From the sequence record DRR723986_16076: DNA of 35,227 nucleotides; one strand, written 5' to 3'. The notes below the pieces were generated by a model that had not been told where the DNA came from, did no database searches, and saw nothing but the letters and a program-made list of their open reading frames with translations. A program made the position numbers and the translations under genes. Positions 6,301 to 35,168 of the stretch are shown piece by piece (the first letter of the stretch is position 1; every line of letters begins with the position of its first letter).

Positions 6301-6328
6301 GCAACTTAATACTACGTATTAACGTATT
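6301..6328 (+). promoter_or_regulatory. Candidate ECF sigma promoter (GCAAC-N17-CGTATT) with palindromic spacer
   Basis: GCAAC 6301-6305, spacer TTAATAC-TAC-GTATTAA 6306-6322, CGT 6323-6325, upstream of GTG 6364. Confidence 0.5.
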
Positions 6329-6363: not shown

Positions 6364-9300
6364 GTGCGCATAATTTACCTTTTCATATTGTTTTTATCGC
6401 TTACATTTTCTAATGTGGGTAGGGCTTCTCATATCATGGGAGGTGAAATAACATGGATGTGTTTAGGTTCTGGTCAATACCAGTTTGACCTCGTTTTATA
6501 TCGTGATTGCAACGGACTAGACATTGTTGATCCATTTTTGAATATTGAAGTTTGGGGGCATCCAACTGTTTCAAGCATTCAATGTGATTTATTTGCTACA
6601 ACTGATTTGTCACCAGATTGCTCAGAAATTCCAACATTCCCTATTGAATTGGAATGTGGTACGGGGTCTCAAAGCGGAAATGGAGCAGGGGCCGTTCAAA
6701 AATATTTGTACAGATCCAATCCAGTTGTATTAAGCGGAACACCACCCGCTGGAGGCTGGGCTTTCACGTATGATTCGTTTTCAAGAAATTGGGGGTTATC
6801 CAACATTTCAAATCCACCTTCATATGGAATTACTTTATCTGCGATCATGTATCAAGTGCCAGGTGCTACAGCTAATCCATGTACCGACTCATCACCGCAG
6901 TTTGCACAAGATCCATACATGTTGCTTTGTGCGGGAACAGATTTTCAATACAATTCAAATGCTTACGATCCTGATAACGATTCATTGGCTTATAGTTGGG
7001 GTGTTCCTTTAGATCATTTTCCAGCTGGGACATTTGATCCTCCAACCAATCCAGCTCCTGTTCCTTTTGTTGCGGGATTCTCACTTTCAAACCCAACTCC
7101 AGATCAATCTTTCGATCCAGGAAATATTCCTGCGAACATGGATCCAACTTCTGGTGATATTACTTTTTTATCAAATACGACTGGGAATTTTGGATTGGTA
7201 CAGAAAATCGATTCTTACCGCAACGGCGTATTGGTATCTACCATCAATAGAGAAATTCAAATGATCGTAATCCCTTGTCCCGGATATGTGAACACAGCTC
7301 CTGATATTACACCGCCATTTAATGGAAACACCCAATTTGATGCAGAGTTTTTTGCTGGTGATTTAATCAACTTTGATATTATAATTTCAGATGTTGAAGT
7401 CTTGCAAGACGGAAGCCCTCAAACTGTTACACTTCATCCTTCAGGGAATTATTTTGGAACCAACTTTACCAACGCAGGCGCAGGATGTGATTATACGCCA
7501 TGTGCAACTCTAGATCAACCGCCATTGATTCAAGGTGTACAAGGATTAACTACAACTTTCAATTGGCAAACCTCCTGTGATCATTTGTTAGATGCTGATG
7601 GTGTGCAACAATCTGAGCAGATTTACACCTTTGTGTTGAATGCCCAAGATGACTACTGTTCCGTGCCGGGAAGGACTTTTGAAACCATTCGAATAAAATT
7701 GAAGAATCAACCTGTTGTTCAACCAGTAGATTTGCACTGCGTTGATGTTTTACCAAATGGTGATGTTGATTTGACTTGGACACAAACTACTGACCCAGGT
7801 GCTTCTTTTGTTGAATATCAAGTTTGGTCAGTGCAAGACGGGTTTATAGCTGCTGTACCAGGAATTACGACAGAAAATTATACCGTAGTTGGAGCAGGTG
7901 CAAATGTAGTATCAAAAGATTATTTTATTCGTACTCGACACGGTTGTGGTGGAAACAATTTGACCCCATCAGATACACTTTCAAGTATTTTATTGGATTT
8001 AAATGATTTGGGTGATGGTAGAGTACATTTAACGTGGAACAGCACACATGTACCGAAAAATGGAGGTGATAATACCATTGAAGAAGTTTGGAGAGAATAT
8101 CCAGTTGGAACATGGACATTAAGAGGAACTGCGAATTATGGGGTGAATGAATTTTTGGATACGATAGATGTTTGCAATGACCTGTTAACCTATGAGATTC
8201 GAATTCCCAATGCAGCAGGTTGTAGTTCAACCTCAAATGACGAAGGAGCTGTGCTTTCAGACATCATTAACCCTTATATTCCACTGTTAAACTGGGTGAC
8301 TATCGATACTACTGATGACTACGTGGACTTAAGTTGGAATCTAAATCCTGCCCCAGATACTTATGGATATGTTGTTTACGGGTTAATCGGTGGATTCTGG
8401 ATTCCAATTGACACAGTTTGGGGGATCGGAAATACGAGTTATACATATACCGCAACGAATTCAGCAAATGTTCCAGAATCATTCAGGATAACGGCCTTTG
8501 ATTCTTGTTTAACGAATGCTGTTCCACCTACTTATCAAACTTCAGCCTTGAGTAATCCGCATACAACCATTCATGTCGATAACGAGCTAGAAATTTGCGA
8601 AAAAAACGTAACGCTTGAATGGACACCATATGAGGGATGGACAGAAGGTGTTAACCGATACGAAATTATCGCAAGTGTCGGTGGATCTGCTTTTGACGTC
8701 ATAGCATCCGTTGATCCTAATATTTTTACTTATACGCATGAGAGCTTAATTTATGATCTAAATTATTGCTACTATATCAGGGCGGTATCTAATAACGATT
8801 CCATTTCCTATTCTAATCGCAATTGTAGGTTTATACAACGTCCTAGCCAGCCTAATTTCCATTATTTGGCAACGGCCAGTCATAACCTAGCAAATGAAAT
8901 AGAGGTGGTGTTGTTTACAGATGCGGCTGCAGCAGTGAATTCATATGAAGTTGAGGTAAAAGGTCCACTAGATTCTGATTTTTCAATTGCAGGATTTTTA
9001 GATCCGTCAACTTCAAATTTCATTACTTATTATGACGGTGAAGTATTTCCTGAGCGTGGGGCATATGAGTACAAGGTCAACTTGATTGATTCATGCGGTA
9101 ATGTGGGAGATATTTCAAACATTGCAAGAACGGTTTATTTAAAAGTAGATATCGACCATATCAACATGGTAAATGTCTTAAGTTGGTCAGCTTATCAAGG
9201 ATTTGATGGTAACATTGTGCAATACAATATTTATCGTGGCGAAGATGGTATATTTCCGGCAACCCCAATCGCTACTACATTGCCTGGGGTTAGATCTTTA

Positions 9301-9717
9301 GAAGATGATGTGTCTGCTTACTTCAGTTCTTCAGAAGGACAATTTTGTTATCGAGTAGAGGCGGTAGAAAGCGTCAATTCTCATGGATTTTCAGAAACGG
9401 CGTTTTCAAATACGGTCTGTGCAACTCTTGAACCTGTTGTATACATTCCGAACGCATTTTTTATCAATGGTGAAAATCCAATTTTTAAACCTATCTTGAA
9501 TCTCTATGAGTTTGATTCATATGAGCTCAATATTTTTGATCGTTGGGGAGGAATCATCTTCACAACAGATGATAGAGATGAAGGTTGGAATGGTACTGGT
9601 AAATTCGGAGATCTAAAATCTGAAGGAACCTATATTTACTTTGTAAGTTTCGAGGACAGAGACGGTAAAGAGTATGAGTATCGCGGTACAGTAACCATGC
9701 TGATAGATAAAGATTAA
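6364..9717 (+). CDS. Large T9SS cargo protein with Fn3/Ig-like repeats and type-B (gliding-motility-associated) CTD
   Basis: Signal peptide, ASHIMGGEITW..YRDC N-terminal motif, repeated LTW/LSW..Y Fn3-like modules, C-terminus VYIPNAF..IFDRWGGIIF..GWNG..GTYIY..GTVTML. Confidence 0.85.
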   Translation: MRIIYLFILFLSLTFSNVGRASHIMGGEITWMCLGSGQYQFDLVLYRDCNGLDIVDPFLNIEVWGHPTVSSIQCDLFATTDLSPDCSEIPTFPIELECGTGSQSGNGAGAVQKYLYRSNPVVLSGTPPAGGWAFTYDSFSRNWGLSNISNPPSYGITLSAIMYQVPGATANPCTDSSPQFAQDPYMLLCAGTDFQYNSNAYDPDNDSLAYSWGVPLDHFPAGTFDPPTNPAPVPFVAGFSLSNPTPDQSFDPGNIPANMDPTSGDITFLSNTTGNFGLVQKIDSYRNGVLVSTINREIQMIVIPCPGYVNTAPDITPPFNGNTQFDAEFFAGDLINFDIIISDVEVLQDGSPQTVTLHPSGNYFGTNFTNAGAGCDYTPCATLDQPPLIQGVQGLTTTFNWQTSCDHLLDADGVQQSEQIYTFVLNAQDDYCSVPGRTFETIRIKLKNQPVVQPVDLHCVDVLPNGDVDLTWTQTTDPGASFVEYQVWSVQDGFIAAVPGITTENYTVVGAGANVVSKDYFIRTRHGCGGNNLTPSDTLSSILLDLNDLGDGRVHLTWNSTHVPKNGGDNTIEEVWREYPVGTWTLRGTANYGVNEFLDTIDVCNDLLTYEIRIPNAAGCSSTSNDEGAVLSDIINPYIPLLNWVTIDTTDDYVDLSWNLNPAPDTYGYVVYGLIGGFWIPIDTVWGIGNTSYTYTATNSANVPESFRITAFDSCLTNAVPPTYQTSALSNPHTTIHVDNELEICEKNVTLEWTPYEGWTEGVNRYEIIASVGGSAFDVIASVDPNIFTYTHESLIYDLNYCYYIRAVSNNDSISYSNRNCRFIQRPSQPNFHYLATASHNLANEIEVVLFTDAAAAVNSYEVEVKGPLDSDFSIAGFLDPSTSNFITYYDGEVFPERGAYEYKVNLIDSCGNVGDISNIARTVYLKVDIDHINMVNVLSWSAYQGFDGNIVQYNIYRGEDGIFPATPIATTLPGVRSLEDDVSAYFSSSEGQFCYRVEAVESVNSHGFSETAFSNTVCATLEPVVYIPNAFFINGENPIFKPILNLYEFDSYELNIFDRWGGIIFTTDDRDEGWNGTGKFGDLKSEGTYIYFVSFEDRDGKEYEYRGTVTMLIDKD

Positions 9718-9825: not shown

Positions 9826-11895
9826 ATGAAATCTTTCGCCCTTGTAAGTCTAGTTCTTGTAACTCAATTCAACTTTGCTCAAAACAAAGAAACAATTTGG
9901 GTAACTCAACTCACTGAAACTGCTTTTCCGCAGCAGTTTATTGAAGATTATCACATCACATCAATAGAAAATGCGTTTCCAGCTTCTAAAAATGAAGAAC
10001 TAAAAAATGTGGTTGAAGTAGTTTGTACTTGCAATGTAGATGTTCTCATGCAAAACATGAATGAAAACAAAAGAGATTTCAATGTAGCAGTTAGAGCTCC
10101 TCAACCAGAATTATTGTCGGTTCCTAATGATTATAATTTAGAATTCAGTAATGATTATGCACTAGATCTTATCAATGCATCAGAAGCATGGTTATTTTCA
10201 ACAGGTGATTCGTCCATTCAAATTGCGATTTCTGATTCTAATTATGATTTGAATCACGAAGAACTTCAAGGAAATATTTCACATACAGATACAAGTTTTG
10301 GTTCAAGCAATTATTACCATGGTACTGCGGTTGCCATAACCGCAGCAGGAGATACGGATAATGGTTTAGGAAAAAGTGCTATCGGTTACAACAGTTCATT
10401 ACAGCTGAGGGGAATGAGTTTTAACAGTATACTTGAAGCTACTTATAGTGGAGCTAAAGTCATCAATTTAAGTTGGTCATCAGGATGTACAAATAACCCT
10501 TATAGTCAGATGGTAATTTCAGAGGCCTTTAACAATGGTTCAATAGTTGTAGCGGCTGCAGGCAACGGCTTTACCTGTGGAAATTCAACTGCTTTAGTTT
10601 ACCCAGCGGCTTATGATCATGTTATAGCTGTTTCAAGTGTAGGTCCAATGGATAATCATGAGCAGATAATGGGAGATCCAAACACCACTCATCAACACAA
10701 CTCTTCCGTGGATATTTGTGCACCAGGATATGATGTAGCGTTATCAGTTTCCAGTGGATGGTATTTAACCGGAAATGGTTCTTCATTTGCTGCGCCTTAT
10801 GTTAGCGGAACAATAGCTTTAATGTTAGATGTTAACCCATGTTTAACATTTCAGGACATAGAATTTATTCTACAAGAAACGGCTTTTAACTTGGATTCTT
10901 TGAATCCTCAATATGCGGGAGAACTTGGTGCTGGGAGGTTAAATGCAGGGTTAGCCGTTGAAATGGCAACTACGTATAACAAACCAATGTTTACTTTATA
11001 TAGCACTTATAATTGCAACGAAACAATGAACGCAGATGTGTTATTAGATAGCTCATCATTTACGAATGCTGTAGCCGTTGATTGGAATACTGGAGCGACA
11101 GGAACTCACTTAGGTAACTTAGTTGCTGGCGAATACATTTGTACAGTGACGAATGAAACAGGATGTTCGACTTCGGATACAATTCAAATAGCTCCCGTTC
11201 AAAGCATAGCAATAAACGGAACAATAGCTGGAGTGGCTTGTAATGGAGAATCCACTGGTGAGATAGAGATACTAATCAATGGAGGCTCTGGAGCTTATGA
11301 TATCGTTTGGAGCACAAATGATACGGTAACAGTTATTACGGATTTATTAGCAGGAGTTTATGAAGTGCTGGTAGTAGATGATATGGGATGTATTCAGGTT
11401 GAGTCTTTTCAGGTAGATGAAAATCCTGCTTTGGAGATAGATTTATTAACTAAAAATTATTTTTCTGATCAAGATGCAGGTGCTATTCAAGCCAATATAG
11501 AAGGAGGGATGCCTGATTATACGCTCGAAATTAATGGGATAGCTGCGGATTTAAGTATTTCGGATTTGGCTGTAGGTTTTTATCAAGTTAAGGTAACGGA
11601 TCAAATGGGGTGTTCAGCTGAAGATACAGCAGTGATTGAAGATGGTGGATCTTTATTCATTGTAGAAGAGGCCGATAATCAAGTGTTAGTTTATCCCAAC
11701 CCTTCATCAGGTCAGTTTCAAATTGATGCGCCAACAGGAACTGCATTCAAAATAATGAACAGCCAAGCTAAGATTGTCGAAGTTGGACATGTATTGGATA
11801 GCGCCGAAAAAGTTTACTTAAGCCCAGGAGTTTATATAATTCAACTGAACATGTTGGACGGAACAGTTCAAACCGAAAAAATGGTCATTCGCTAA
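9826..11895 (+). CDS. S8 (subtilisin-like) serine peptidase with SprB-like repeats and T9SS type-A CTD
   Basis: Triad IAISDS / YHGTAVA / GSSFAAPYVSG, oxyanion AAAGN, SprB-like L.AG.Y.V.V.D..GC repeats, CTD VYPNPS..GVYII..K. Confidence 0.9.
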   Translation: MKSFALVSLVLVTQFNFAQNKETIWVTQLTETAFPQQFIEDYHITSIENAFPASKNEELKNVVEVVCTCNVDVLMQNMNENKRDFNVAVRAPQPELLSVPNDYNLEFSNDYALDLINASEAWLFSTGDSSIQIAISDSNYDLNHEELQGNISHTDTSFGSSNYYHGTAVAITAAGDTDNGLGKSAIGYNSSLQLRGMSFNSILEATYSGAKVINLSWSSGCTNNPYSQMVISEAFNNGSIVVAAAGNGFTCGNSTALVYPAAYDHVIAVSSVGPMDNHEQIMGDPNTTHQHNSSVDICAPGYDVALSVSSGWYLTGNGSSFAAPYVSGTIALMLDVNPCLTFQDIEFILQETAFNLDSLNPQYAGELGAGRLNAGLAVEMATTYNKPMFTLYSTYNCNETMNADVLLDSSSFTNAVAVDWNTGATGTHLGNLVAGEYICTVTNETGCSTSDTIQIAPVQSIAINGTIAGVACNGESTGEIEILINGGSGAYDIVWSTNDTVTVITDLLAGVYEVLVVDDMGCIQVESFQVDENPALEIDLLTKNYFSDQDAGAIQANIEGGMPDYTLEINGIAADLSISDLAVGFYQVKVTDQMGCSAEDTAVIEDGGSLFIVEEADNQVLVYPNPSSGQFQIDAPTGTAFKIMNSQAKIVEVGHVLDSAEKVYLSPGVYIIQLNMLDGTVQTEKMVIR

Positions 11896-21543: not shown

Positions 21544-22237
21544 AAACATATCCTTAAGTGTAAATGAGCGGCTTTTGTTTAATCTTCAGCAATTAGATAT
21601 TTCTGAAGGATTGGTGGCTTTAGTTGGTCGAAATGGCTCTGGTAAATCTAGTTTTATCCGATCTATCTTAAATGAATTTGAAGAGTGTTCAGGAGAAATT
21701 TATTTAAAATCTGTACCACTTCGTCAATTTACAAAGAGCGAATTGGCCGAGAAGATTGCGGTTGTTTATTCTAAAGTAGATGTGTTTGGTGATTATACAG
21801 TTGAGGATATTCTCAAATTAGGAAGATTGCCTTATCAAAACCGTTTTGCTATGACTTCAGATCAGGATAATGAAATTATTGCCAGAGTGGCGAATGATCT
21901 AGGGATAAAAGATTTTTTATCTCGCAAATTTACTGAGCTGAGTGATGGAGAAAAGCAGCTAGTAATGATTGGAAGGGCCTTTGTGCAAGATACAGACCTC
22001 ATTTTAATGGATGAGCCAACTGCCTTCTTAGATTTGGTGAACAGAAGTAAATTGATCAAACTTTTGAGTGAATGGGCTAAGAATCAGAACAAATTAATTT
22101 TGTTTTCCACTCATGATATTGATTTGTTAGACCGCTATTGTTCTTCAGTTCTATTAATTGACAATAATGAGCTAATTGAACTGCAGTCGAATGAAAGCTA
22201 TATCAATCAAATAAAATCGGCATTTAAAATTACGTGA
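21530..22237 (+). CDS. ABC ATP-binding protein (BtuD/FecE type)
   Basis: GRNGSGKS, LSDGE signature variant, LMDEPT, STHD. Confidence 0.9.
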   Translation: MLKFKNISLSVNERLLFNLQQLDISEGLVALVGRNGSGKSSFIRSILNEFEECSGEIYLKSVPLRQFTKSELAEKIAVVYSKVDVFGDYTVEDILKLGRLPYQNRFAMTSDQDNEIIARVANDLGIKDFLSRKFTELSDGEKQLVMIGRAFVQDTDLILMDEPTAFLDLVNRSKLIKLLSEWAKNQNKLILFSTHDIDLLDRYCSSVLLIDNNELIELQSNESYINQIKSAFKIT

Positions 22238-23169
22238 TGAAATTGATGTTAAAAACTAAGCTGCCTGCTGATCCTAATTATCTCACTTATTCATCAAAAA
22301 TATTGAGCATTGGTTCATGCTTTTCAGACGAGATTGCCGCGAAAATGAAAAATGAACAGTTTGAAATTGAGGCGAATCCTTGCGGGGTTATTTTCAATCC
22401 AGAATCAATTCTGAATGTTTTAGAAGATGCTTTCAGTTTTACGATCAATGAAAAACACATTATTGATCGAGACGGGTTGTGGTTGAACTATGATTACCAT
22501 TCTTCAATTTTTGGAACATCTAGACAAGAACTGTTGACTTCGATTTCAGATTGTCAAGAAATCCTTAATGATCAATTAAAAACAAGCAGTCATATTTTTG
22601 TGACATTCGGTTCTGCCTGGGTATATAGTTTAAACGAGACAAAACGAAAAGTTGCCAATTGTCACAAAATGCCTAACGGAATATTTGAAAAGAAATTAAT
22701 TGAGTTAGAGCAATTGTATGCAGGTTGGCAATCCTTTATCGATCGCTTAAATAAACTGAATCCTGCTGTTAAAATACTGTTCACTGTAAGCCCTATTCGA
22801 CATTCAAAAGACGGACTACGAGAAAATAACCTCAGTAAAGGAATTCTCCATCAATTGGTGTATCAATTAGAAAAAAATAATGCGCAGGTATCTTATTTTC
22901 CATCTTACGAAATAATCATTGATGAGTTGAGAGATTATCGATTTTATAAAAATGACATGGTGCACCCATCTGGTCTGGCTGTGGATTATGTCTACGATAA
23001 ATTCAAATCGGCTTATTTTTCTGATAAAACAAAAGAACTATCGATATTATGTGGAAAGCTTCAAAAAGCGAAGGGACATCAGTTTATCAATGCCTCTTCA
23101 CTGCAAATTCAACAGCATGAATCTTTGATTCAAAATTTAGAAGAACAGATTTCAATTTTAAGGAAATAA
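22237..23169 (+). CDS. GSCFA-domain protein (SGNH hydrolase-like)
   Basis: GSCFS, VANCHK, TVSPIRH, YFPSYEI..DELRDYRFY, DMVHP motifs. TGATG coupling to the upstream gene. Confidence 0.88.
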   Translation: MKLMLKTKLPADPNYLTYSSKILSIGSCFSDEIAAKMKNEQFEIEANPCGVIFNPESILNVLEDAFSFTINEKHIIDRDGLWLNYDYHSSIFGTSRQELLTSISDCQEILNDQLKTSSHIFVTFGSAWVYSLNETKRKVANCHKMPNGIFEKKLIELEQLYAGWQSFIDRLNKLNPAVKILFTVSPIRHSKDGLRENNLSKGILHQLVYQLEKNNAQVSYFPSYEIIIDELRDYRFYKNDMVHPSGLAVDYVYDKFKSAYFSDKTKELSILCGKLQKAKGHQFINASSLQIQQHESLIQNLEEQISILRK

Positions 23170-23203
23170 AAAAACCTCTGAGTTGATCTCAGAGGTTTTT
23201 TTT
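23168..23203. terminator. Bidirectional intrinsic terminator
   Basis: A7-CCTCTGAG-ttgat-CTCAGAGG-T8 between convergent genes. Confidence 0.92.
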
Positions 23204-23228: not shown

Positions 23229-24629
23229 TTATCTAATGATGATCACTTGCCCTTCATACATTTCAGGTTCACCATTACTGTTAGTTAGAACTACTCTCCA
23301 AATGTAGGCAGCTCCAGCTGGTGCAAGTGTATTGTCTTTTGTGATTAATCCATCCCAAGGCTCATTAGCACTTTGAGTGCTGTATACTAAATCTCCAGCT
23401 TTATTCATAATGTTCATTGTGAATGGCACATCCATTAATTTCAGTGCTTCTGGAATAAATGTTTCGTTCTTGAAATCTCCGTTTGGTGAAAATGCTGTTG
23501 GAGCAAGTAGGTTGTAATCTTTCTCAATAGTAATCGTCTTTTGAGTAGTTTTTTGACAGCCATTTTCATTTTCAGCAGTCAGTTCAACCATATACTTTCC
23601 AGCTTTTCTGAAGGTATACTCGAATTCATTTCGTTGAGATTGCTTCAATCCTTTGATATTCCATGCCCATTTAACAGCTTCATCAGTTAAGTTGATGAAA
23701 TCTACTGTTGGAATGATTTCATTAGATTGCTCCCATCCGAAATTGGTTTCAGGTAAGGCATTTATTGTGATTGTTTCTTTAGAGCTTGCCAATGTTTTGT
23801 TTGTTTTAGGATGCTTAATTTCTAAAGTAACTGAATAGTCTCCAGATTTCTTATAAGCATGATTCCCTAACATTGAAGAGCTAATTTCACCGTCTCCGAA
23901 ATTCCAAACATAAATAAGATCAGAATTCATTACCTGAGGAGTGAAAATGCATTTCTCTTTAACACATACACTAGAAACATTTGCACTAAATGATGCGTCT
24001 GCATGGTATTCAATAACTTCTGGTTGGTGAACAACATGATTGTTTCCGTTACCATTGTTATTAACAACATTGTTATCTGGCAGATTCACAACTGAACCTC
24101 CGTTATCATTGTTGTTGTCGCTGTTGTTATTGTTATGATTTCCGTTATTCTCTACAACATTTCCATTCTCTTCAGAATTTTCAATGTGTGAATCCCCGTT
24201 ATTTGTAACAATCCCATTGTTTTGATCATTTTCAAAATTTTGGTTCTCGTTTTGACCAACAACATTACTAGAACCGTTTTCAGCAATTGAATTGTTGTCA
24301 TTAATGGCAACTTCAGTTGACTGATTCTTGTCGTTAATCGCAGTTTCAGAAGAATCTTGATTGTAGATATAAACAGAACTCACAACAACAGCAACTGCTG
24401 CAGCCGTACCAGCAATCCATTTCCAAGCCGAATTAGCAGCTCCTAATTGTCCACTAACAGCTTCCCAAGCCGCAGGGTTGTAAGGCGCTTCATATCCACT
24501 TGTGGATTCCTTCATCATTTGATCAAATGAATCACCAAGCTCATTGCTCACGTTCTCCCACGCTTGCGGATTGAACGGCATTTCGTGCCCCTCAACTGCT
24601 TGTTTCATTATTTTTTCAAACTTGTCCAT
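23229..24629 (-). CDS. Putative anti-sigma factor: duplicated cytoplasmic motif, TM helix, Asn-rich linker, 2 PKD domains, T9SS type-B CTD
   Basis: No N-terminal signal peptide; TM at about aa 71-89; WNFGDG PKD motif; CTD LLAPTAFSPNGD..N..F.P..WDG..Y.W..GQVIIIR. Lies 9 nt downstream of the ECF sigma gene. Anti-sigma role is inferred. Confidence 0.75.
   Translation of the reverse strand: MDKFEKIMKQAVEGHEMPFNPQAWENVSNELGDSFDQMMKESTSGYEAPYNPAAWEAVSGQLGAANSAWKWIAGTAAAVAVVVSSVYIYNQDSSETAINDKNQSTEVAINDNNSIAENGSSNVVGQNENQNFENDQNNGIVTNNGDSHIENSEENGNVVENNGNHNNNNSDNNNDNGGSVVNLPDNNVVNNNGNGNNHVVHQPEVIEYHADASFSANVSSVCVKEKCIFTPQVMNSDLIYVWNFGDGEISSSMLGNHAYKKSGDYSVTLEIKHPKTNKTLASSKETITINALPETNFGWEQSNEIIPTVDFINLTDEAVKWAWNIKGLKQSQRNEFEYTFRKAGKYMVELTAENENGCQKTTQKTITIEKDYNLLAPTAFSPNGDFKNETFIPEALKLMDVPFTMNIMNKAGDLVYSTQSANEPWDGLITKDNTLAPAGAAYIWRVVLTNSNGEPEMYEGQVIIIR
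24441..24626 (-). repeat. Tandem 31-aa repeat in the N-terminus of the putative anti-sigma factor
   Basis: DKFEKIMKQAVEGHEMPFNPQAWENVSNELG versus DSFDQMMKESTSGYEAPYNPAAWEAVSGQLG. Confidence 0.85.
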
Positions 24630-24638
24630 TTACTTTTA

Positions 24639-25205
24639 TTAATGTCGTTGAAACTTTAAGCTCAACTCTGCTTTTAATTTTTGTTTAGCCTTCGCTAAGT
24701 TAGATTTTGAAGTTCCTTCACTGATTCCCAGATATTCCGCAATTTCTTTATGCGTAAATCCTTCCATCACATACATGTTAAATACCGTTCTGTAAGCTGG
24801 TGATAAATTACTTATCGCCTTAATCGCTTCCTCAGCTTGTATCTTAGTTTCGTACTCATCCTCTTCTGAGAATGGAACATCTTCTTCGATATTCTGAATT
24901 CGGCTATCTTCTTCAATCGAAAAAGGATCACGTTTGTTTTTCCTTATTTGATCGATAGCGGTATTCACCATTATCCTTCTAATCCAACCTTCCAAAGAAC
25001 CTTCAAAATTGTAAACATCCAGTTTCTTAAATATTTTGATGAATCCATTCTGAACCATGTCCTGCGCTTCGTCTTGATCTTTGGCGTAGCGCATGCAAAC
25101 AGCCATCATTTTTCCGTAAAACATTTCAAAGAGTTGCTTCTGATACTTGCGCTTGCCTTTAATGCAGCCATCAACTATTATCTGAAGTTCTTCTTTAGTT
25201 TCCAC
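24639..25205 (-). CDS. ECF RNA polymerase sigma-70 factor
   Basis: Region 2 (AQDMVQNGFIKIF..GSLEGWIRRIMVNTAID) and region 4 (LSPAYRTVFNMYVMEGFTHKEIAEYLGISEGTSKSNL). GTG 25205 chosen because the candidate promoter overlaps TTG 25232. Confidence 0.95.
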   Translation of the reverse strand: METKEELQIIVDGCIKGKRKYQKQLFEMFYGKMMAVCMRYAKDQDEAQDMVQNGFIKIFKKLDVYNFEGSLEGWIRRIMVNTAIDQIRKNKRDPFSIEEDSRIQNIEEDVPFSEEDEYETKIQAEEAIKAISNLSPAYRTVFNMYVMEGFTHKEIAEYLGISEGTSKSNLAKAKQKLKAELSLKFQRH

Positions 25206-25220
25206 TGTGTTTTCAATTAA

Positions 25221-25248
25221 TAAACGAATCAATTATTGGGGGGTTGCC
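25221..25248 (-). promoter_or_regulatory. Candidate autoregulatory ECF promoter (GGCAAC-N16-CGTTTA)
   Basis: Minus strand GGCAAC-CCCCCAATAATTGATT-CGTTTA, ending about 15 nt upstream of GTG 25205. Confidence 0.65.
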
Positions 25249-26486: not shown

Positions 26487-28289
26487 ATGAAACTGATTGG
26501 AACACTTTTAGTGCTAATTTCTTTTCAACTCATGGCCTTTTCGCAAGAAATCGACTTTAGTGAAGACGAAAAAGAATGGATTAAAAACCATGACACCGTG
26601 TATTTCGGTTATGATCCAGGATGGAGACCGCTTGAATTTATTAATGAAAAGGGTGAGCACTCAGGCGTAACTGCAGATTATTTGCGAATTATTGAAGAAA
26701 AATCGGGAATTAACTTCGAACCATACCCGAATATTAAGGATTGGGCTGAAGCAGAACAGTTAGCAAAGGACAAGAAAGTCAATTTTTTACCAGCATTGGC
26801 TCAAAATAATAGAAGAGAAGAGTTTCTTGATTTTACAGATGCCTTTTTTTCATATTCGTTTGTCATAGTTTCAGCAAAAGAAGGAGATTTCATAGGAGGC
26901 GTTGGTGATCTTGAAGGAAAAAAAGTTGCAATTGTTGAAGGGTATCAGATAAGTGATTTGTTGAAAGCGGATTCTATTGGTATGAATTTTATTAAAAAGA
27001 ATACCATTAATGATTGCCTCCTAGCCGTTTCAACCGGTGAGGCGGATGCCACCGTTACTAATGTTATTGTTGCAAGTCATTATATGAATTACGGAGGTTA
27101 TGATAACTTGAAAATTGCCTCATCAACACCCTATCCTGCGATAGAAATAAAAATGGGAGTAGTTGAGGGTGATTCAACTTTGATTAGCATCCTTGAGAAG
27201 GGGATGGACGCTATTTTACCAAAAGAAAAAAGCAACATCATGAATAGCTGGATTACAGTTCAGTATGAGCATGGTGTGGATATGAAGAAAGTCTCTAGAA
27301 TTGCTATGATTTCGGCTTCGATAGTTCTGTTCATTTTCGGCTCATTTTATTATTGGAACAGAAAATTAAAGAAAGAGGTAAGTCTAAGAAAAGAAGCAGA
27401 AGAGCAATTAAGGAATTCTTTTGATGAGATTTCAGAACAAAAGAAAATCATTGAGCATAAAAATGAAGAGGTATTGGACAGTATCAAATACGCTAAGCGT
27501 CTACAAGAAGCTATCCTTCCGCCGTTAAACTTAGTGAACCAAAAGTTCGAGAAGAATTTTATTCTCTATAAACCAAAAGATATAGTCGCGGGTGATTTTT
27601 ATTGGCATGAATCGTTTAATTGTGAAGAGGCTGAAAATGAAGTGAACTTCATTGCCGCAGCTGATTGTACAGGACATGGTGTTCCAGGCGCAATGGTGTC
27701 GGTTGTTTGTTCAAATGCCTTGAATCAATCTGTTTTGCAACATAAGTTGTGTGATCCAGGTGCGATTCTCGATAAAACAACAGACCTTGTTGTCGAACGA
27801 TTTGAGAGAAGTGCTGAGGAAGTTAAAGATGGTATGGACATCTCTATGGTTTCAATTGAAAAGTTGAACAATGGCAAATCCAAAGTAAAATATGCAGGAG
27901 CACATAATAATTTATGGGTGGTTTCGGCTAGAGATGGAATTGGCACAGAAGCTATCATTACTGGGAATGAAAATTTTAATCACAAAATTTTTGAAATCAA
28001 AGCCAGCAAACAGCCAGTAGGAAAACATGATAGAAGAGAACCTTTTAAGACAACTGAAATGTTATTGGAGAAGGGGGATAAAATTTATCTTTTCACAGAT
28101 GGCTATGCCGATCAGTTTGGTGGTGAAAACGGTAAAAAGTTTAAAAGCAAAAACTTCAAAGATTTGATCATTAGAACTTATGAAATGAATTTGAACGATC
28201 AAAAACAAGAATTAAATCGAGTTTTTGAAGAGTGGAGTGAGGGATACGAGCAATTAGATGATGTTTGCGTAATAGGAATCGAAATATAA
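26487..28289 (+). CDS. Sensor PP2C phosphatase: periplasmic PBP2 (BvgS-like) domain, TM helix, SpoIIE domain
   Basis: FSEDEKEWIK..DPGWRPLEF..G...D PBP motifs, TM then YWNRKLKKE, GDFY, ADCTGHGVPGA, DGMDI, FTDGYADQFGG, DDVCVIG. Confidence 0.9.
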   Translation: MKLIGTLLVLISFQLMAFSQEIDFSEDEKEWIKNHDTVYFGYDPGWRPLEFINEKGEHSGVTADYLRIIEEKSGINFEPYPNIKDWAEAEQLAKDKKVNFLPALAQNNRREEFLDFTDAFFSYSFVIVSAKEGDFIGGVGDLEGKKVAIVEGYQISDLLKADSIGMNFIKKNTINDCLLAVSTGEADATVTNVIVASHYMNYGGYDNLKIASSTPYPAIEIKMGVVEGDSTLISILEKGMDAILPKEKSNIMNSWITVQYEHGVDMKKVSRIAMISASIVLFIFGSFYYWNRKLKKEVSLRKEAEEQLRNSFDEISEQKKIIEHKNEEVLDSIKYAKRLQEAILPPLNLVNQKFEKNFILYKPKDIVAGDFYWHESFNCEEAENEVNFIAAADCTGHGVPGAMVSVVCSNALNQSVLQHKLCDPGAILDKTTDLVVERFERSAEEVKDGMDISMVSIEKLNNGKSKVKYAGAHNNLWVVSARDGIGTEAIITGNENFNHKIFEIKASKQPVGKHDRREPFKTTEMLLEKGDKIYLFTDGYADQFGGENGKKFKSKNFKDLIIRTYEMNLNDQKQELNRVFEEWSEGYEQLDDVCVIGIEI

Positions 28290-30890: not shown

Positions 30891-31703
30891 TTGAACATGA
30901 TTGGAGATAATCTAAAATTATTGAGAAAAAGACGAAAAGTTTCTCAAGAAGAAATTGCACAAGAGTTGGGTTTAACCCGTTCGTCTTATAGTGGCTATGA
31001 AAATGGAGTTGCTGAACCAAATCTCTCAACTTTAATAAAATTCAGTGCTTATTATAATTTGTCTTTAGATAAACTAATCAAGCGCGACTTGACTAAGATT
31101 TCTGAGCTCGAATGGGATAAAATCGATAAAGGAATTGATGTTGATGTAGAAGGAAAGAATGTGCGAATCATTGCAATGACGGTAGATGGTGACAATAATG
31201 ATAATATCGAATTGGTTTCTGAAAAAGCACGTGCAGGATATACTACTGGATTTTCTGATCCAGAGTTCATTTCGGTGTTACCTACCTTTCAATTGCCCTT
31301 TCTAAAGAAAGATCGTAAATACAGAACTTTTCCAATCAAAGGAGATTCTATGCCTCCTGTTTCAGATGGATCTTATGTAGTTGGTGAATACGTAGACAAT
31401 TGGAGCAATATTAAAGATGGATATCCGCATATTGTTGTGACCTTAGATGATGGAATCGTTTTCAAGAATGTCTATAAACGCCTATCTGACAACCAGTCTT
31501 TTCAGCTTTGCAGTACCAATCCAGCTTACGAACCCTATGAAGTTCATGCGAACAATATCGTAGAGATTTGGAAATTCGTCAACTATATTTCTAGCGATAT
31601 GCCTACACAAGAATTTCAAGAAAGCGAATTAACCGCAGCAATTTTAGACCTTCAAAAAGATGTTAAGCATCTTAAGAATGTTTACGTGCCGAGAAAATCA
31701 TAA
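30891..31703 (+). CDS. XRE/CI-type HTH plus S24 peptidase repressor (non-canonical LexA-like)
   Basis: NLKLLRK..SQEEIA..YSGYENG.AEP HTH; Ala-Gly site ARAGY; catalytic Ser GDSM and Lys VFK. Alternative start ATG 30897. Confidence 0.88.
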   Translation: MNMIGDNLKLLRKRRKVSQEEIAQELGLTRSSYSGYENGVAEPNLSTLIKFSAYYNLSLDKLIKRDLTKISELEWDKIDKGIDVDVEGKNVRIIAMTVDGDNNDNIELVSEKARAGYTTGFSDPEFISVLPTFQLPFLKKDRKYRTFPIKGDSMPPVSDGSYVVGEYVDNWSNIKDGYPHIVVTLDDGIVFKNVYKRLSDNQSFQLCSTNPAYEPYEVHANNIVEIWKFVNYISSDMPTQEFQESELTAAILDLQKDVKHLKNVYVPRKS

Positions 31704-31766: not shown

Positions 31767-34700
31767 ATGTTCAGGATACTCTGTTTCTTGTCTTTATTAA
31801 ATTTTGTAGTTTTCGGATATGCTCAATCTGAGAAACTAGCGAATTTCAAACATTTTAAGTGTTCTGATTTCGGAGTAGATAAGTTGATTTATCAAAATTG
31901 GGATTCAGATGGAAATTTTTGGGCGGTATCATCAGAAGGATTGCTAAGACACAATGGCGTAAGAAAAAAAATATTCCCTTATGATTCTACGGCAACTGAA
32001 TCTATTTATTTGGTGAGCCCTAACATTCAAAACTTCATGGAAACCAAAACAGATGAATTTTGGATAACATACTCCGATACCAACTTAATCACCCAGATTA
32101 ATGCTCAAACAGAGAGATTCATTCATCATAGAATTGACAGTTTAAATACCAACGGAGAGTTGACTGCCCTTGGCGTTGAAGTTGAATTAGATAAAAATGG
32201 GGATTATTGGCTAGTAACATGGAACAAAGGTTTGATGAAACTAGACTTGGAAAGCGAAACCCAAGAGATTTTTGAATTCGGTTTTAAAGATGGTGAAAAC
32301 CCACGCAAATGTAGAATGAAGGACCTTTATCAGTTGGAATCTGGAGAGTTTTTGGTCACCTTCTTTAATGAAGCAGCGCGTAAAAAAAGTTTTCCGGTCA
32401 TTTTTAATCCCGATACCAAAAACTATTCAAGACTAGATATTGAATCATATATCAGCCATCATGATGAATTATTGAGAAAGCAAATAAAAGTGGCTATATC
32501 AATTGTCCATTTTGTAAAGGTAGATATGAATGGCAATTATTGGTTTGGGACATACAGTGGTCTACTTTTTATGGACAACGAAAAACACACCTTAGAAAGA
32601 GTAAGTACTCAAGGAGTTGATAAAGCCGTTCAAAATCAGGCCAATGCTGGAAGTGGAATATTAATCGGAGATGAATTATGGGTAGCAACTCCTAATCTCG
32701 GAGTTCTTGTAGTCAATATTAATACGCGCCAAATAACAGTTTTAAAAAATAACCCAAAAAACACAAGTAGTCTGACGGATAATCAAGTGAGCAGTGTTTC
32801 AGTGGACCCACAAAATAACATTTGGGTATGTAATGGCCCATCTAACTTAAGCGTTTACGTACCCTTTGTTCACAATTTCAAAATAATGTATTGGAGTGAT
32901 ATGGAGCTAGCCTTTACCAACAGTTCTGTGCAAAAAATACCAGTTAGTCAAATTGTAGTTAAGAATTCACGTCAAATTTATATTGGTTCAAAACCGGGTA
33001 TTGACGTTTATGACGGAAATAGTCTAAAAGTCACTGAAAGTTATCACTTTGAAAGTTTTGAAGGTGACTATAAAAAGCGAAGGGGGGTTGAGAATTTTAA
33101 AGTGACGAAAGATAAAATTTATTTAACTCTAGATGGAAAGCCTCATACCTATAATCTAAAGACAAAAAAACTACAAAAACATATGCAAGGAGGTAGGTAT
33201 ATTGCTTTTAGACATGATTCTTCTATGACTGATTACTACTCTCAGTCGCCTACTTGGTATGGTGCTAGTATTTGGGATATGAAAGATCCCAATAATACCA
33301 GAGAAATGATTCGGTTTCCAAAAGGTATCGATATCAATGAAACCTTTTCGTTTGTTACTCCAAAAGGAAATTGGATCAATTCTGAGGCAAAAGGTCGATT
33401 TTTATTGATTAAACCAAATGATTCTATTTACCATTTGTTCAGCCCATCTCAATCAGAAAGTTATTTTCCGGACAGTACTGTTAAATGTGTTTATGTTGAA
33501 AAGGGGAGAGACATACTCATTGGTACGGGTTCTGGTCTGTACGAATTTAATGAAGAGACTTGGGAGTATAATAACATCTCTGAAGATATTGGATTGAATA
33601 ATGATGTGGTGAATTCAATTGTTAAGGATGAAACTGGGAGGTATTGGATGGCATTGAACACGGACATATTGTGTTGGAACAGAGAAGAGAATACAACCAC
33701 AAGATATGGAGCAAAGGTGGGATTCAATGCATCTAAATTTTTACCCGCTATAGGACAAAGAGATGAGTTGGGAAATATATATTTCGTATCCATGTTCGGA
33801 ATAATCAGATTTCACCCGGACCAAGTTAAGTTACCACGGCATCCAATTTTTGTTCAACTTGATCAGCTTACTGTTAATGATGAATCTGTAAATGAAAAAG
33901 ATTTAGCTGAATTTCTAAAAGGAGGTTTTGAATTCAAATACGATCAAAATTTCCTAGAATTTGAATTTTTTACGAATCAGGTATTCGAATTAACCCCCCA
34001 TCAATACGAGTATAAATTAGAAGGCCTAAATAGTCAATGGATTGATAATGGTGCAAACAATAGTGTCAGATTTGACAATTTGCAGGATGGTGACTATATC
34101 TTAAAATTTAAGGTAACGAACGCTTACGGAACCAGCAGCGAGGTGTTTGAAGTGCCATTTACAATTGCAAAACCGTTTTGGCAAACATGGTGGTTTATTA
34201 TGTTGATTTCACTTTGTGGAATAGGCTTGATTTACCTCCTGGTCAAAGGAAGAATGAAGGCTTTGAAAAAACGTTCAGAGTTATTAGAACAAACCGTAAC
34301 TGAAAGAACTGCAGAAGTTGTTGAACAAAAGAAAGAGGCTGAGAAACAAAAGGAAGAAGCAGAGCATCAGAAAGAAATTGTTGAAGAAAAGCAAAAAGAA
34401 ATTACAGACAGTATTACTTATGCGAAAAGAATTCAAGATGCCATTCTGCCTTCTGATGAATTGATTCAGCATCATCTTCCGAATTCTTTTGTGATGTATC
34501 GTCCAAAGGATATTGTTGCGGGAGATTTTTATTGGTTGGAACCTTTGTCAGATGACGAAGTGGTATTTGCAGCAGCTGATTGCACAGGGCATGGTGTTCC
34601 TGGAGCAATGGTAAGTGTGGTTTGTAACAATGCTTTGAATAGAACAGTACGCGAGTTTGGAATAAGTGAACCCGGAAAATTGCTTGATAAAACAAGGGAT

Positions 34701-35168
34701 TTGGTGATAGAACAATTTGAGCAAAGCGCCAATCTTAGCTTGGATTCTGAAGGTCAAACAATCAAAGATGGTATGGATATCGCCGTCTGCAAATTGAATA
34801 AGAAGTCACAAGTCCTTCATTATTCAGGAGCAAATAACCCTCTATGGATTATCCGAGACAACGAACTGATAGAAACAAAAGGAGATAAACAGCCAGTTGG
34901 AAAATTTGAACCTTCTAATAAATTCACCAATCACGAAATAGAAATGAATTCGGGTGATTTGGTTTATATTTTTTCTGATGGATATGCGGATCAGTTTGGT
35001 GGGGAGAAAGGAAAAAAATTCAAATCATCTTCATTGAAAAAACTACTATTAAGTATACATCAACTTCCATTGTCAGAGCAATTAGCAGCACTAGAAACTA
35101 ATTTTGATCAGTGGAAAGGAACCTTTGAGCAATTAGATGATGTTTGCGTGATAGGATTTAAAATATAA
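31767..35168 (+). CDS. Sensor PP2C phosphatase: two-component-regulator propeller, Y_Y_Y domain, TM helix, coiled coil, SpoIIE domain
   Basis: Repeated D..G.YW propeller blades, YEYKLEGL..W..F.NL..G.Y, KPFWQTWWF TM, E/K-rich coil, GDFY, ADCTGHG, FSDG, DDVC. Confidence 0.9.
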   Translation: MFRILCFLSLLNFVVFGYAQSEKLANFKHFKCSDFGVDKLIYQNWDSDGNFWAVSSEGLLRHNGVRKKIFPYDSTATESIYLVSPNIQNFMETKTDEFWITYSDTNLITQINAQTERFIHHRIDSLNTNGELTALGVEVELDKNGDYWLVTWNKGLMKLDLESETQEIFEFGFKDGENPRKCRMKDLYQLESGEFLVTFFNEAARKKSFPVIFNPDTKNYSRLDIESYISHHDELLRKQIKVAISIVHFVKVDMNGNYWFGTYSGLLFMDNEKHTLERVSTQGVDKAVQNQANAGSGILIGDELWVATPNLGVLVVNINTRQITVLKNNPKNTSSLTDNQVSSVSVDPQNNIWVCNGPSNLSVYVPFVHNFKIMYWSDMELAFTNSSVQKIPVSQIVVKNSRQIYIGSKPGIDVYDGNSLKVTESYHFESFEGDYKKRRGVENFKVTKDKIYLTLDGKPHTYNLKTKKLQKHMQGGRYIAFRHDSSMTDYYSQSPTWYGASIWDMKDPNNTREMIRFPKGIDINETFSFVTPKGNWINSEAKGRFLLIKPNDSIYHLFSPSQSESYFPDSTVKCVYVEKGRDILIGTGSGLYEFNEETWEYNNISEDIGLNNDVVNSIVKDETGRYWMALNTDILCWNREENTTTRYGAKVGFNASKFLPAIGQRDELGNIYFVSMFGIIRFHPDQVKLPRHPIFVQLDQLTVNDESVNEKDLAEFLKGGFEFKYDQNFLEFEFFTNQVFELTPHQYEYKLEGLNSQWIDNGANNSVRFDNLQDGDYILKFKVTNAYGTSSEVFEVPFTIAKPFWQTWWFIMLISLCGIGLIYLLVKGRMKALKKRSELLEQTVTERTAEVVEQKKEAEKQKEEAEHQKEIVEEKQKEITDSITYAKRIQDAILPSDELIQHHLPNSFVMYRPKDIVAGDFYWLEPLSDDEVVFAAADCTGHGVPGAMVSVVCNNALNRTVREFGISEPGKLLDKTRDLVIEQFEQSANLSLDSEGQTIKDGMDIAVCKLNKKSQVLHYSGANNPLWIIRDNELIETKGDKQPVGKFEPSNKFTNHEIEMNSGDLVYIFSDGYADQFGGEKGKKFKSSSLKKLLLSIHQLPLSEQLAALETNFDQWKGTFEQLDDVCVIGFKI

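Follow-up and report, generated by a model that had tools for sequence, protein, structure and literature searches.

Why should a protein with a predicted anchor in the inner membrane, encoded directly behind an extracytoplasmic function (ECF) sigma factor, end in a type IX secretion system (T9SS) sorting domain? This question is raised by a gene pair in sequence record DRR723986_16076, of which a stretch of 35,227 nucleotides, referred to here as the window, was analysed. As a sequence-only reading of this DNA had reported, the open reading frame (ORF) of the sigma factor (24639-25232, minus strand) is followed after 9 nt by that of the membrane protein (Table 1). [quoted passage not shown] The circumstantial evidence is good that the T9SS is here coupled to the transcription of T9SS cargo.

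The membrane protein had been described as a hydrophilic N-terminus, one transmembrane (TM) helix, an Asn-rich linker, two PKD domains and a type-B CTD, and this layout was confirmed by Pfam, hydropathy and AlphaFold2. The AlphaFold2 model comprises four short N-terminal helices, a helix at amino acids (aa) 68 to 89 and three beta domains mostly above 90 in predicted local distance difference test (pLDDT) score, with 93.7 for the CTD and values below 50 for aa 89 to 198. The sole hydrophobic segment, aa 71 to 89, has a Kyte-Doolittle value of 1.73, the best value beyond aa 150 being only 0.78. Among 70 homologues, a conserved segment of 39 to 115 aa stands ahead of the only hydrophobic helix in all 70, and the charge is positive-inside in 68; since both features are conserved, the protein is predicted to have no cleavable Sec signal peptide, in accordance with the earlier description. 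A later start, which would turn the TM helix into a signal peptide, was ruled out because Met1 and the cytoplasmic motif are conserved in the homologues. The linker is 90 to 146 aa long in these proteins (median, about 115), and its column conservation is merely 0.16. The PKD_4 and PKD matches pass the Pfam cut-off, and the PDB matches of this region are collagenase PKDs; Foldseek matched the protein as a whole only to generic Ig-like structures and gave nothing informative on the CTD. The earlier account of the N-terminus was right, but it missed a tandem duplication there and an ECF21-type promoter ahead of the sigma gene. The two 31-aa copies, which follow the pattern F/LE..xK..LE.yE.PY...AW..l...L, are identical at 16 of 31 positions, and Trp-24 is unchanged across 70 sequences.

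Table 1. Features of the window that bear on the sigma/anti-sigma pair and its candidate target
Feature	Position	Strand	Evidence
ECF21-type autoregulatory promoter, GCAACC-N15-CGTTT	25222..25247	-	Only match in window (0.02 expected)
ECF21-like ECF sigma factor, 188 aa from GTG 25205	24639..25205	-	Pfam r2/r4_2, TIGR02937, sigma tree
Putative anti-sigma factor P0001, 466 aa	23229..24629	-	ORF, domain, homologue and linkage evidence
Cytoplasmic module, two tandem 31-aa motif copies, aa 2-63, putative sigma-binding domain	24441..24626	-	Trp-24 invariance, module recurrence
Single TM helix, aa 71-89, predicted N-in	24363..24419	-	Hydropathy, AlphaFold2 helix, charge rule
Asn-rich, acidic, disordered linker, predicted periplasmic, aa 90-205 (116 aa)	24015..24362	-	pLDDT <50
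Two PKD domains, aa about 211-369	23523..23999	-	PF18911/PF00801, AlphaFold2
Divergent type-B T9SS CTD, aa 371-466	23232..23519	-	PF13585, cargo CTD alignment, AlphaFold2
Intrinsic terminator-like hairpin ending the two-gene operon, common to the convergent GSCFA gene	23168..23202	-	
Near-consensus promoter GCAACT-N16-CGTAT, candidate regulon member	6301..6327	+	One of only two relaxed-motif matches in window
Orphan type-B T9SS cargo gene, 1117 aa, without adjacent PorP/SprF gene, candidate sigma target	6364..9717	+	PF13585, 41.6 bits

Among 8000 candidates scored, 195 homologues of the putative anti-sigma were found; the named ones are mostly Crocinitomicaceae and include the cultured relatives Paracrocinitomix mangrovi and Putridiphycobacter roseus. 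In a family sample of 71 loci, drawn from a search of 151 family genomes and made up of the top 30 loci, 40 chosen full-length matches and L001, the gene immediately upstream and on the same strand encodes a related ECF sigma in all 71; two of these loci, L001 and L005, are almost identical to the window. The same was found in 24 of 24 further loci, of which 21 belong to 13 other families in this order, and 23 of the 24 carry a CTD-like tail by a hidden Markov model built from our own alignment. Synteny of the pair across relatives, a proposed check of the sequence-only reading, was accordingly observed at 95 of 95 homologous loci; these loci are kin, and the counts express conservation rather than statistical independence. 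A profile of the N-terminus matches 170 of 201 order genomes; a word-based search with aa 1 to 95 retrieved close kin only, and a single-protein genome scan retrieved L001 only. In genome-wide work the window's own genome is represented by G001 and relatives. A 55%-identical homologue, P0013, carries an Arenicella (Gammaproteobacteria) label as part of a metagenome-assembled genome, probably through mis-binning.

The sigma factor exceeds the cut-offs of Sigma70_r2, r4_2 and TIGR02937. Just upstream of it, GCAACY-N15/16-CGTY was present in 67 of 67 anchored loci (3 of 70 loci could not be anchored for this test), the mean in shuffled sequences being 0.018, and this promoter agrees with the ECF21 motif GCAACC/CGTCT predicted in the supplement of PMC7826278. 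TTG 25232 was ruled out as the sigma start because it sits within the conserved promoter, with the -35 box on one side of it and the -10 box on the other, and GTG 25205 is likely to be the start of a 188-aa protein. The assignment to ECF21 is tentative and draws on the promoter match and on grouping with 13 barrel-partnered sigma factors in a quick tree, Das1 and EcfO being likened by description. In one metatranscriptomic run, a single contig (23261-25193) spans both genes, which fits co-transcription, contigs being no proof of it; runs X2, X3 and X5 gave short pieces only.

The N-terminal module is common to barrel-, PorP- and CTD-ended proteins behind ECF sigma factors. A profile of motif and TM helix (A2) retrieved 3740 representative proteins, and the Pfam scan of 98 of the 150 listed matches, the longer new ones, revealed 13 outer membrane protein barrels, 4 PorP/SprF proteins and 23 CHU_C proteins, the rest being 29 with PKD only, 1 of another family and 28 without any domain. 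Across the phylum, the module was matched in 52 of 251 genomes, and 28 of 29 sampled loci have an ECF sigma upstream, the exception being a FecR protein. The partners in this sample comprise 11 barrels by Pfam (E up to 0.01) and 2 more by inspection, 12 proteins of the 29 with a short helical tail lacking barrel or CTD, and 3 with PKD/CTD, all in this order. A sigma-profile search of five phylum genomes gave distant sigma factors only, with no partner carrying the module. In the quick tree of 67 sigma factors, from which no order of events is claimed, 29 CTD-partnered sigma factors group together (SH-aLRT, a likelihood-ratio branch support, 94) within a clade (SH-aLRT 99) that also holds 4 PorP-fusion and 13 barrel-partnered ones; FecR-type sigma factors lie outside this clade, as does the sigma factor of a second CTD-partnered paralogue.

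This paralogue belongs to a second sigma/anti-sigma pair with zero to one PKD and a type-B CTD, found once per genome at L083, L084, L086 and L087 (G110, G089, G005 and G001). Since its -10 box in L083 to L086 is AGTCT rather than CGTYW, the second pair seems to have a separate regulon. At L085 (positions 1381-1662; G101) its anti-sigma ORF ends after 93 aa, through a frameshift or an assembly error. Besides, the putative sigma-binding motif has expanded from one copy to as many as seven matched stretches (P0123, P0129, P0162, L026, L031, L090 and L094), in CTD, barrel and PorP forms alike; such expansion may bind several sigma molecules or lengthen the cytoplasmic arm.

Because of the invariant linkage, the module shared with barrel-ended proteins in the anti-sigma position and the ECF21 promoter, the 466-aa protein is very probably an anti-sigma that sequesters the sigma factor, and this part of the sequence-only reading is strongly supported by inference. 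It is very unlikely that the protein is instead a T9SS-related membrane protein that merely happens to be the first member of the sigma regulon. Such a view could draw on the N-terminus, which received no name from Pfam, NCBIfam or ESM Atlas and matches no Pfam or NCBIfam anti-sigma model, and on the fact that the known anti-sigma factors Dma1 and Reo are likened to it by description; however, in practically all contexts found the module occupies position +1 behind an ECF sigma, whatever its C-terminal domain, and the supplement of PMC7826278 describes the anti-sigma factors of ECF21 as one-TM proteins at +1 that usually have a barrel and sometimes lack it.

A link to the T9SS is suggested by a mirror form of the protein, in which the repeated module, TM helix and linker continue in frame into a barrel. 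It was found in five representatives (P0134, P0143, P0200, P0247 and P0260) and at four metagenomic loci (L096 to L099), with a profile match probability of 97%. By Pfam the barrel is PorP/SprF in four of the five proteins and at three of the four loci, P0260 and L099 being included via alignment, and all four loci have a closely related sigma factor and the same promoter. At the two loci with downstream DNA (L097 and L099), the next ORF is in both cases lipoprotein-like with a type-B CTD, which scores above both cut-offs at L097 and below the Pfam cut-off at L099. Type-B CTDs have been reported to have PorP/SprF proteins as their cognate shuttles and anchors (PMC12618676, PMC9143113); thus, the same anti-sigma chassis appears to be joined to either half of a CTD-shuttle pair.

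We further characterized the genes that the sigma factor may control. The sites of GCAACY-N15-CGTYW returned as loci were intergenic in 55 of 76 cases, compared with 1 of 27 sites of the reversed-pattern control; for the two genomes that supplied sites of either kind, the figures were 11 of 16 and 1 of 27. Nine of the 55 intergenic sites precede the sigma gene itself. The other 46 include 25 that precede Pfam-confirmed T9SS cargo, namely, 18 of type B (two assigned through a second ORF) and 7 of type A. The remainder precede two contig-cut secreted proteins, one small, putatively CTD-like protein, nine secreted proteins without evident CTD on inspection, five other genes and, in four cases, nothing. 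Type-B CTDs number 33 to 74 per genome, and against an assumed background of 20% the 25 of 46 correspond to a p of about 3e-7, kinship being ignored. Furthermore, the site is kept before orthologous cargo across genomes (e.g., L100/L110/L151, L105/L109/L150 and L146/L152), and in the window itself a near-consensus promoter heads an orphan cargo gene (Table 1). The predicted regulon is therefore probably the operon of the sigma factor together with a set of T9SS cargo genes.

Some further observations concern these genes. The cargo gene in the window is followed by a type-A CTD S8 peptidase (subtilase; 9826-11895). One regulon cargo gene (L120, 1373-5286; contig C181 of G001) is split into ORFs of 640 and 635 aa, its homologues at L118 and L221 being intact at about 1310 to 1320 aa. 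Immediately after the promoter, two genomes of the genus (L102 and L136) encode a conserved 175-aa protein that has neither Pfam match nor signal peptide. Small secreted proteins (110 to 190 aa) without evident CTD follow the promoter at L126, L141, L142, L145, L154, L173 and L179, and similar ones come directly after the anti-sigma at L290, L294, L295, L299 and L303 to L305.

The sequence-only reading had compared the pair with FlgM; the closest characterised kind, which it did not name, is that of the Dma and Reo systems of ECF21, i.e., Dma1/Das1 (BT_4721/BT_4720) and Dma2/Das2 of Bacteroides thetaiotaomicron, Reo/EcfO of B. fragilis and M0N98_03760/61 of Phocaeicola vulgatus. Like these, the protein stands at +1 of an ECF sigma with a short cytoplasmic N-terminus, one TM helix, a long disordered tether and an ECF21-type promoter (PMC10927553, PMC13088901, PMC9308784, PMC7826278). 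In Dma1, the N-terminal 40 aa are described as pulling down the sigma factor Das1, and the full-length protein as later proteolysed (PMC10927553). The present protein is not a Dma member in the strict sense: it ends in PKD-PKD-type-B CTD, whereas Dma and Reo end in an eight-stranded outer membrane barrel; its cytoplasmic motif is duplicated; and its predicted regulon is T9SS cargo, whereas theirs consists of NigD, vesiculation or O-antigen genes. Homology of the N-terminal module extends to the barrel-ended proteins in the anti-sigma position, Dma1 and Reo themselves being likened by description. We found no paper on a CTD-bearing or PorP-fused anti-sigma in a literature search in which subscription journals were mostly not covered, and the text and part of the supplement of the ECF reclassification (PMC7826278) make no mention of PKD, CHU_C or PF13585, although its supplement tables may list such proteins. 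The pair is widely conserved and apparently new to the literature; most likely it is a variation on the ECF21/Dma design in which PKD-PKD-CTD takes the place of the anti-sigma's barrel.

How, then, might the CTD govern the sigma factor? We suppose that the cytoplasmic motif holds the sigma factor at the inner membrane, which is highly probable, and that release lets the sigma factor use GCAACY-N15-CGTYW promoters, those of its own operon and of a set of T9SS cargo genes, which is likely from sequence prediction. The tether of about 115 aa would let the CTD reach the outer membrane, where, slightly more plausibly than not, it would be handled like cargo by SprA and a PorP/SprF shuttle; SprA was found in five of five genomes tested, including the nearest genome, G001, and so was PorP/SprF, with 15 to 30 matches. 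A free, energised translocon or shuttle that captured the CTD would, given the anchored N-terminus, pull the tether or expose it to cleavage, and intramembrane proteolysis would free the sigma factor. We propose sigma release by proteolysis by analogy with Dma1 and with RseA-type cascades. The net effect would be an export-capacity checkpoint, in which cargo genes are on when the machine has spare capacity. Activation on capture is the direction that we prefer, since the genes predicted to be controlled encode cargo, not machinery, and large adhesins pay when translocon and shuttle are free. Our tentative view, held at somewhat less than even odds, is that the protein is a tethered T9SS substrate whose capture by the translocon and a PorP/SprF shuttle frees the sigma factor and turns cargo genes on, and that its PorP-fused relatives run the circuit from the receptor side. 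The T9SS coupling suggested by the sequence-only reading has in this way gained indirect support, from the predicted cargo regulon and the PorP/SprF-fused mirror form.

A number of observations weigh against the export-capacity reading, and they concern the promoter, the shuttle, the CTD and the topology in turn. The exact promoter pattern occurred 113 times in 10 genomes and its reversed control 121 times; the total is not above the control, and the raw count was dismissed as evidence. Most cargo genes lack the exact motif, and no core T9SS gene was headed by it among the sites examined. A barrel-type paralogue (L088) has a near-consensus promoter too, so that other ECF21 sigma factors may share the regulon. 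With respect to the shuttle, an adjacent PorP/SprF gene is usual though not obligatory for type-B cargo. The genes next downstream at the inspected loci, as judged by N-terminal sequence, included none that could be recognised as PorP/SprF-like; at the window there is none adjacent, the terminator and the convergent GSCFA gene coming next. The PorP fusion is rare: none of 301 phylum genomes and none of 301 order genomes has it.

The CTD is real yet divergent, since the model check proposed in the sequence-only reading had a divided outcome: PF13585 (CHU_C) matches aa 376 to 460 with 35.8 bits against a cut-off of 27, whereas TIGR04131 stays below its cut-off (28.5 against 35). A profile of anti-sigma and cargo CTDs matches the C-terminus of GhpA with an E value of 1.6e-13. 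In many relatives the CTD is too weak for Pfam detection, and the Trp of the cargo motif NRWG is absent from 16 of 16 aligned anti-sigma CTDs of this group, which have a signature of their own, YNLLAP...FxPxAL, in the alignment with cargo CTDs. These features could also mean that PKD-PKD-CTD was borrowed from cargo as a periplasmic sensor that does not engage the T9SS and detects unfolded cargo, a chaperone, a ligand or the state of the wall, the sigma factor still running surface-protein genes. The short-tailed proteins at 12 of 29 phylum loci, which imply that outer membrane contact is not obligatory, fit such a sensor as well. We consider it unlikely, however, because the CTD is the most conserved region of the protein (0.55 against 0.16 to 0.41 elsewhere in 70 homologues), because PxFxPNGD, WxG, YxW and the terminal strand are kept in the closer homologues, and because relatives L002 and L299 exceed the TIGR04131 cut-off; the second paralogous pair bears a CTD too, and the mirror form exists.

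The main difficulty of the export-capacity reading is topological. Published cargo is described as meeting PorP/SprF most likely at the surface, past SprA (PMC9143113), and an anchored chain, which cannot complete such a meeting, must be cut or stall. This difficulty, together with the divergent CTD without the NRWG Trp, is why the borrowed sensor stays live, and so does a static envelope tether, the closest analogue of Dma: the CTD would be docked on a PorP/SprF barrel or the translocon, and loss of docking or outer membrane stress would lead to proteolysis and sigma release. A linker kept in length but not in sequence fits such a tether; Dma1 is reported to span both membranes as a single polypeptide (PMC10927553), a Dma-type pair of P. 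vulgatus to respond to envelope stress (PMC9308784), and the PorP-fused form would place a shuttle-type barrel permanently on the tether. On the other hand, a chain threaded through SprA would presumably block the translocon, no dedicated PorP gene follows the operon, and making more cargo while export fails is hard to rationalise. We regard a static tether, too, as improbable.

Other known systems share single traits with the pair. [quoted passage not shown] Type-B cargo is described as depending on motifs A to E for secretion (PMC12618676). ECF sigma control is also tied to the T9SS in PorA-PorXY-SigP of Porphyromonas gingivalis (ECF228), where PorA, which itself bears a CTD, has its place upstream of a sigma factor, and at the SM6 CGT-box promoters of Flavobacterium psychrophilum (PMC7712824, PMC9723704). 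Those systems use a two-component route and have machinery genes such as porK-N, porU and gldN among their targets, whereas here a single chain would unite the CTD with the anti-sigma, and cargo genes are the predicted targets. The pair resembles FecI/FecR/TonB-receptor signalling (ECF240-243) in that a sigma factor and a one-TM anti-sigma reach an outer membrane partner, but a domain scan found neither a FecR domain nor an adjacent TonB-dependent receptor at the window locus, and the FecR-type sigma factors group elsewhere. FlgM is a small soluble anti-sigma that is exported whole by a type III system and gates late genes with FliA. The analogy drawn earlier with FlgM/FliA holds for the logic only, i.e., an anti-sigma as a secretion substrate, and no homology is claimed.

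Elsewhere in the window, the convergent GSCFA-family gene (22234-23169) is a common neighbour of the pair across the family, a neighbourhood that is probably merely positional. Two membrane sensor proteins with SpoIIE-type phosphatase domains (26487-28289 and 31767-35168) and an HTH/S24 (LexA/CI-like) regulator (30891-31703) are encoded nearby.

In the cited work, T9SS regulation concerns mainly the machinery genes, as with SigP and the SM6 promoters (PMC7712824, PMC9723704). The present pair is a candidate regulator of the cargo genes, with a concrete promoter and a predicted regulon, and it offers a path along which the secretion machine could act physically on transcription, and by which the cell may link cargo production to the state of that machine. 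The occurrence of a barrel, a short tail, a CTD or a PorP shuttle on one cytoplasmic module suggests that the Dma chassis is modular, which bears on the stimulus of Dma proteins and on their assembly. If the export-capacity reading is true, the pair would be a type IX secretion checkpoint, in which the CTD-shuttle pair is wired to one anti-sigma chassis across most of an order of Bacteroidota.

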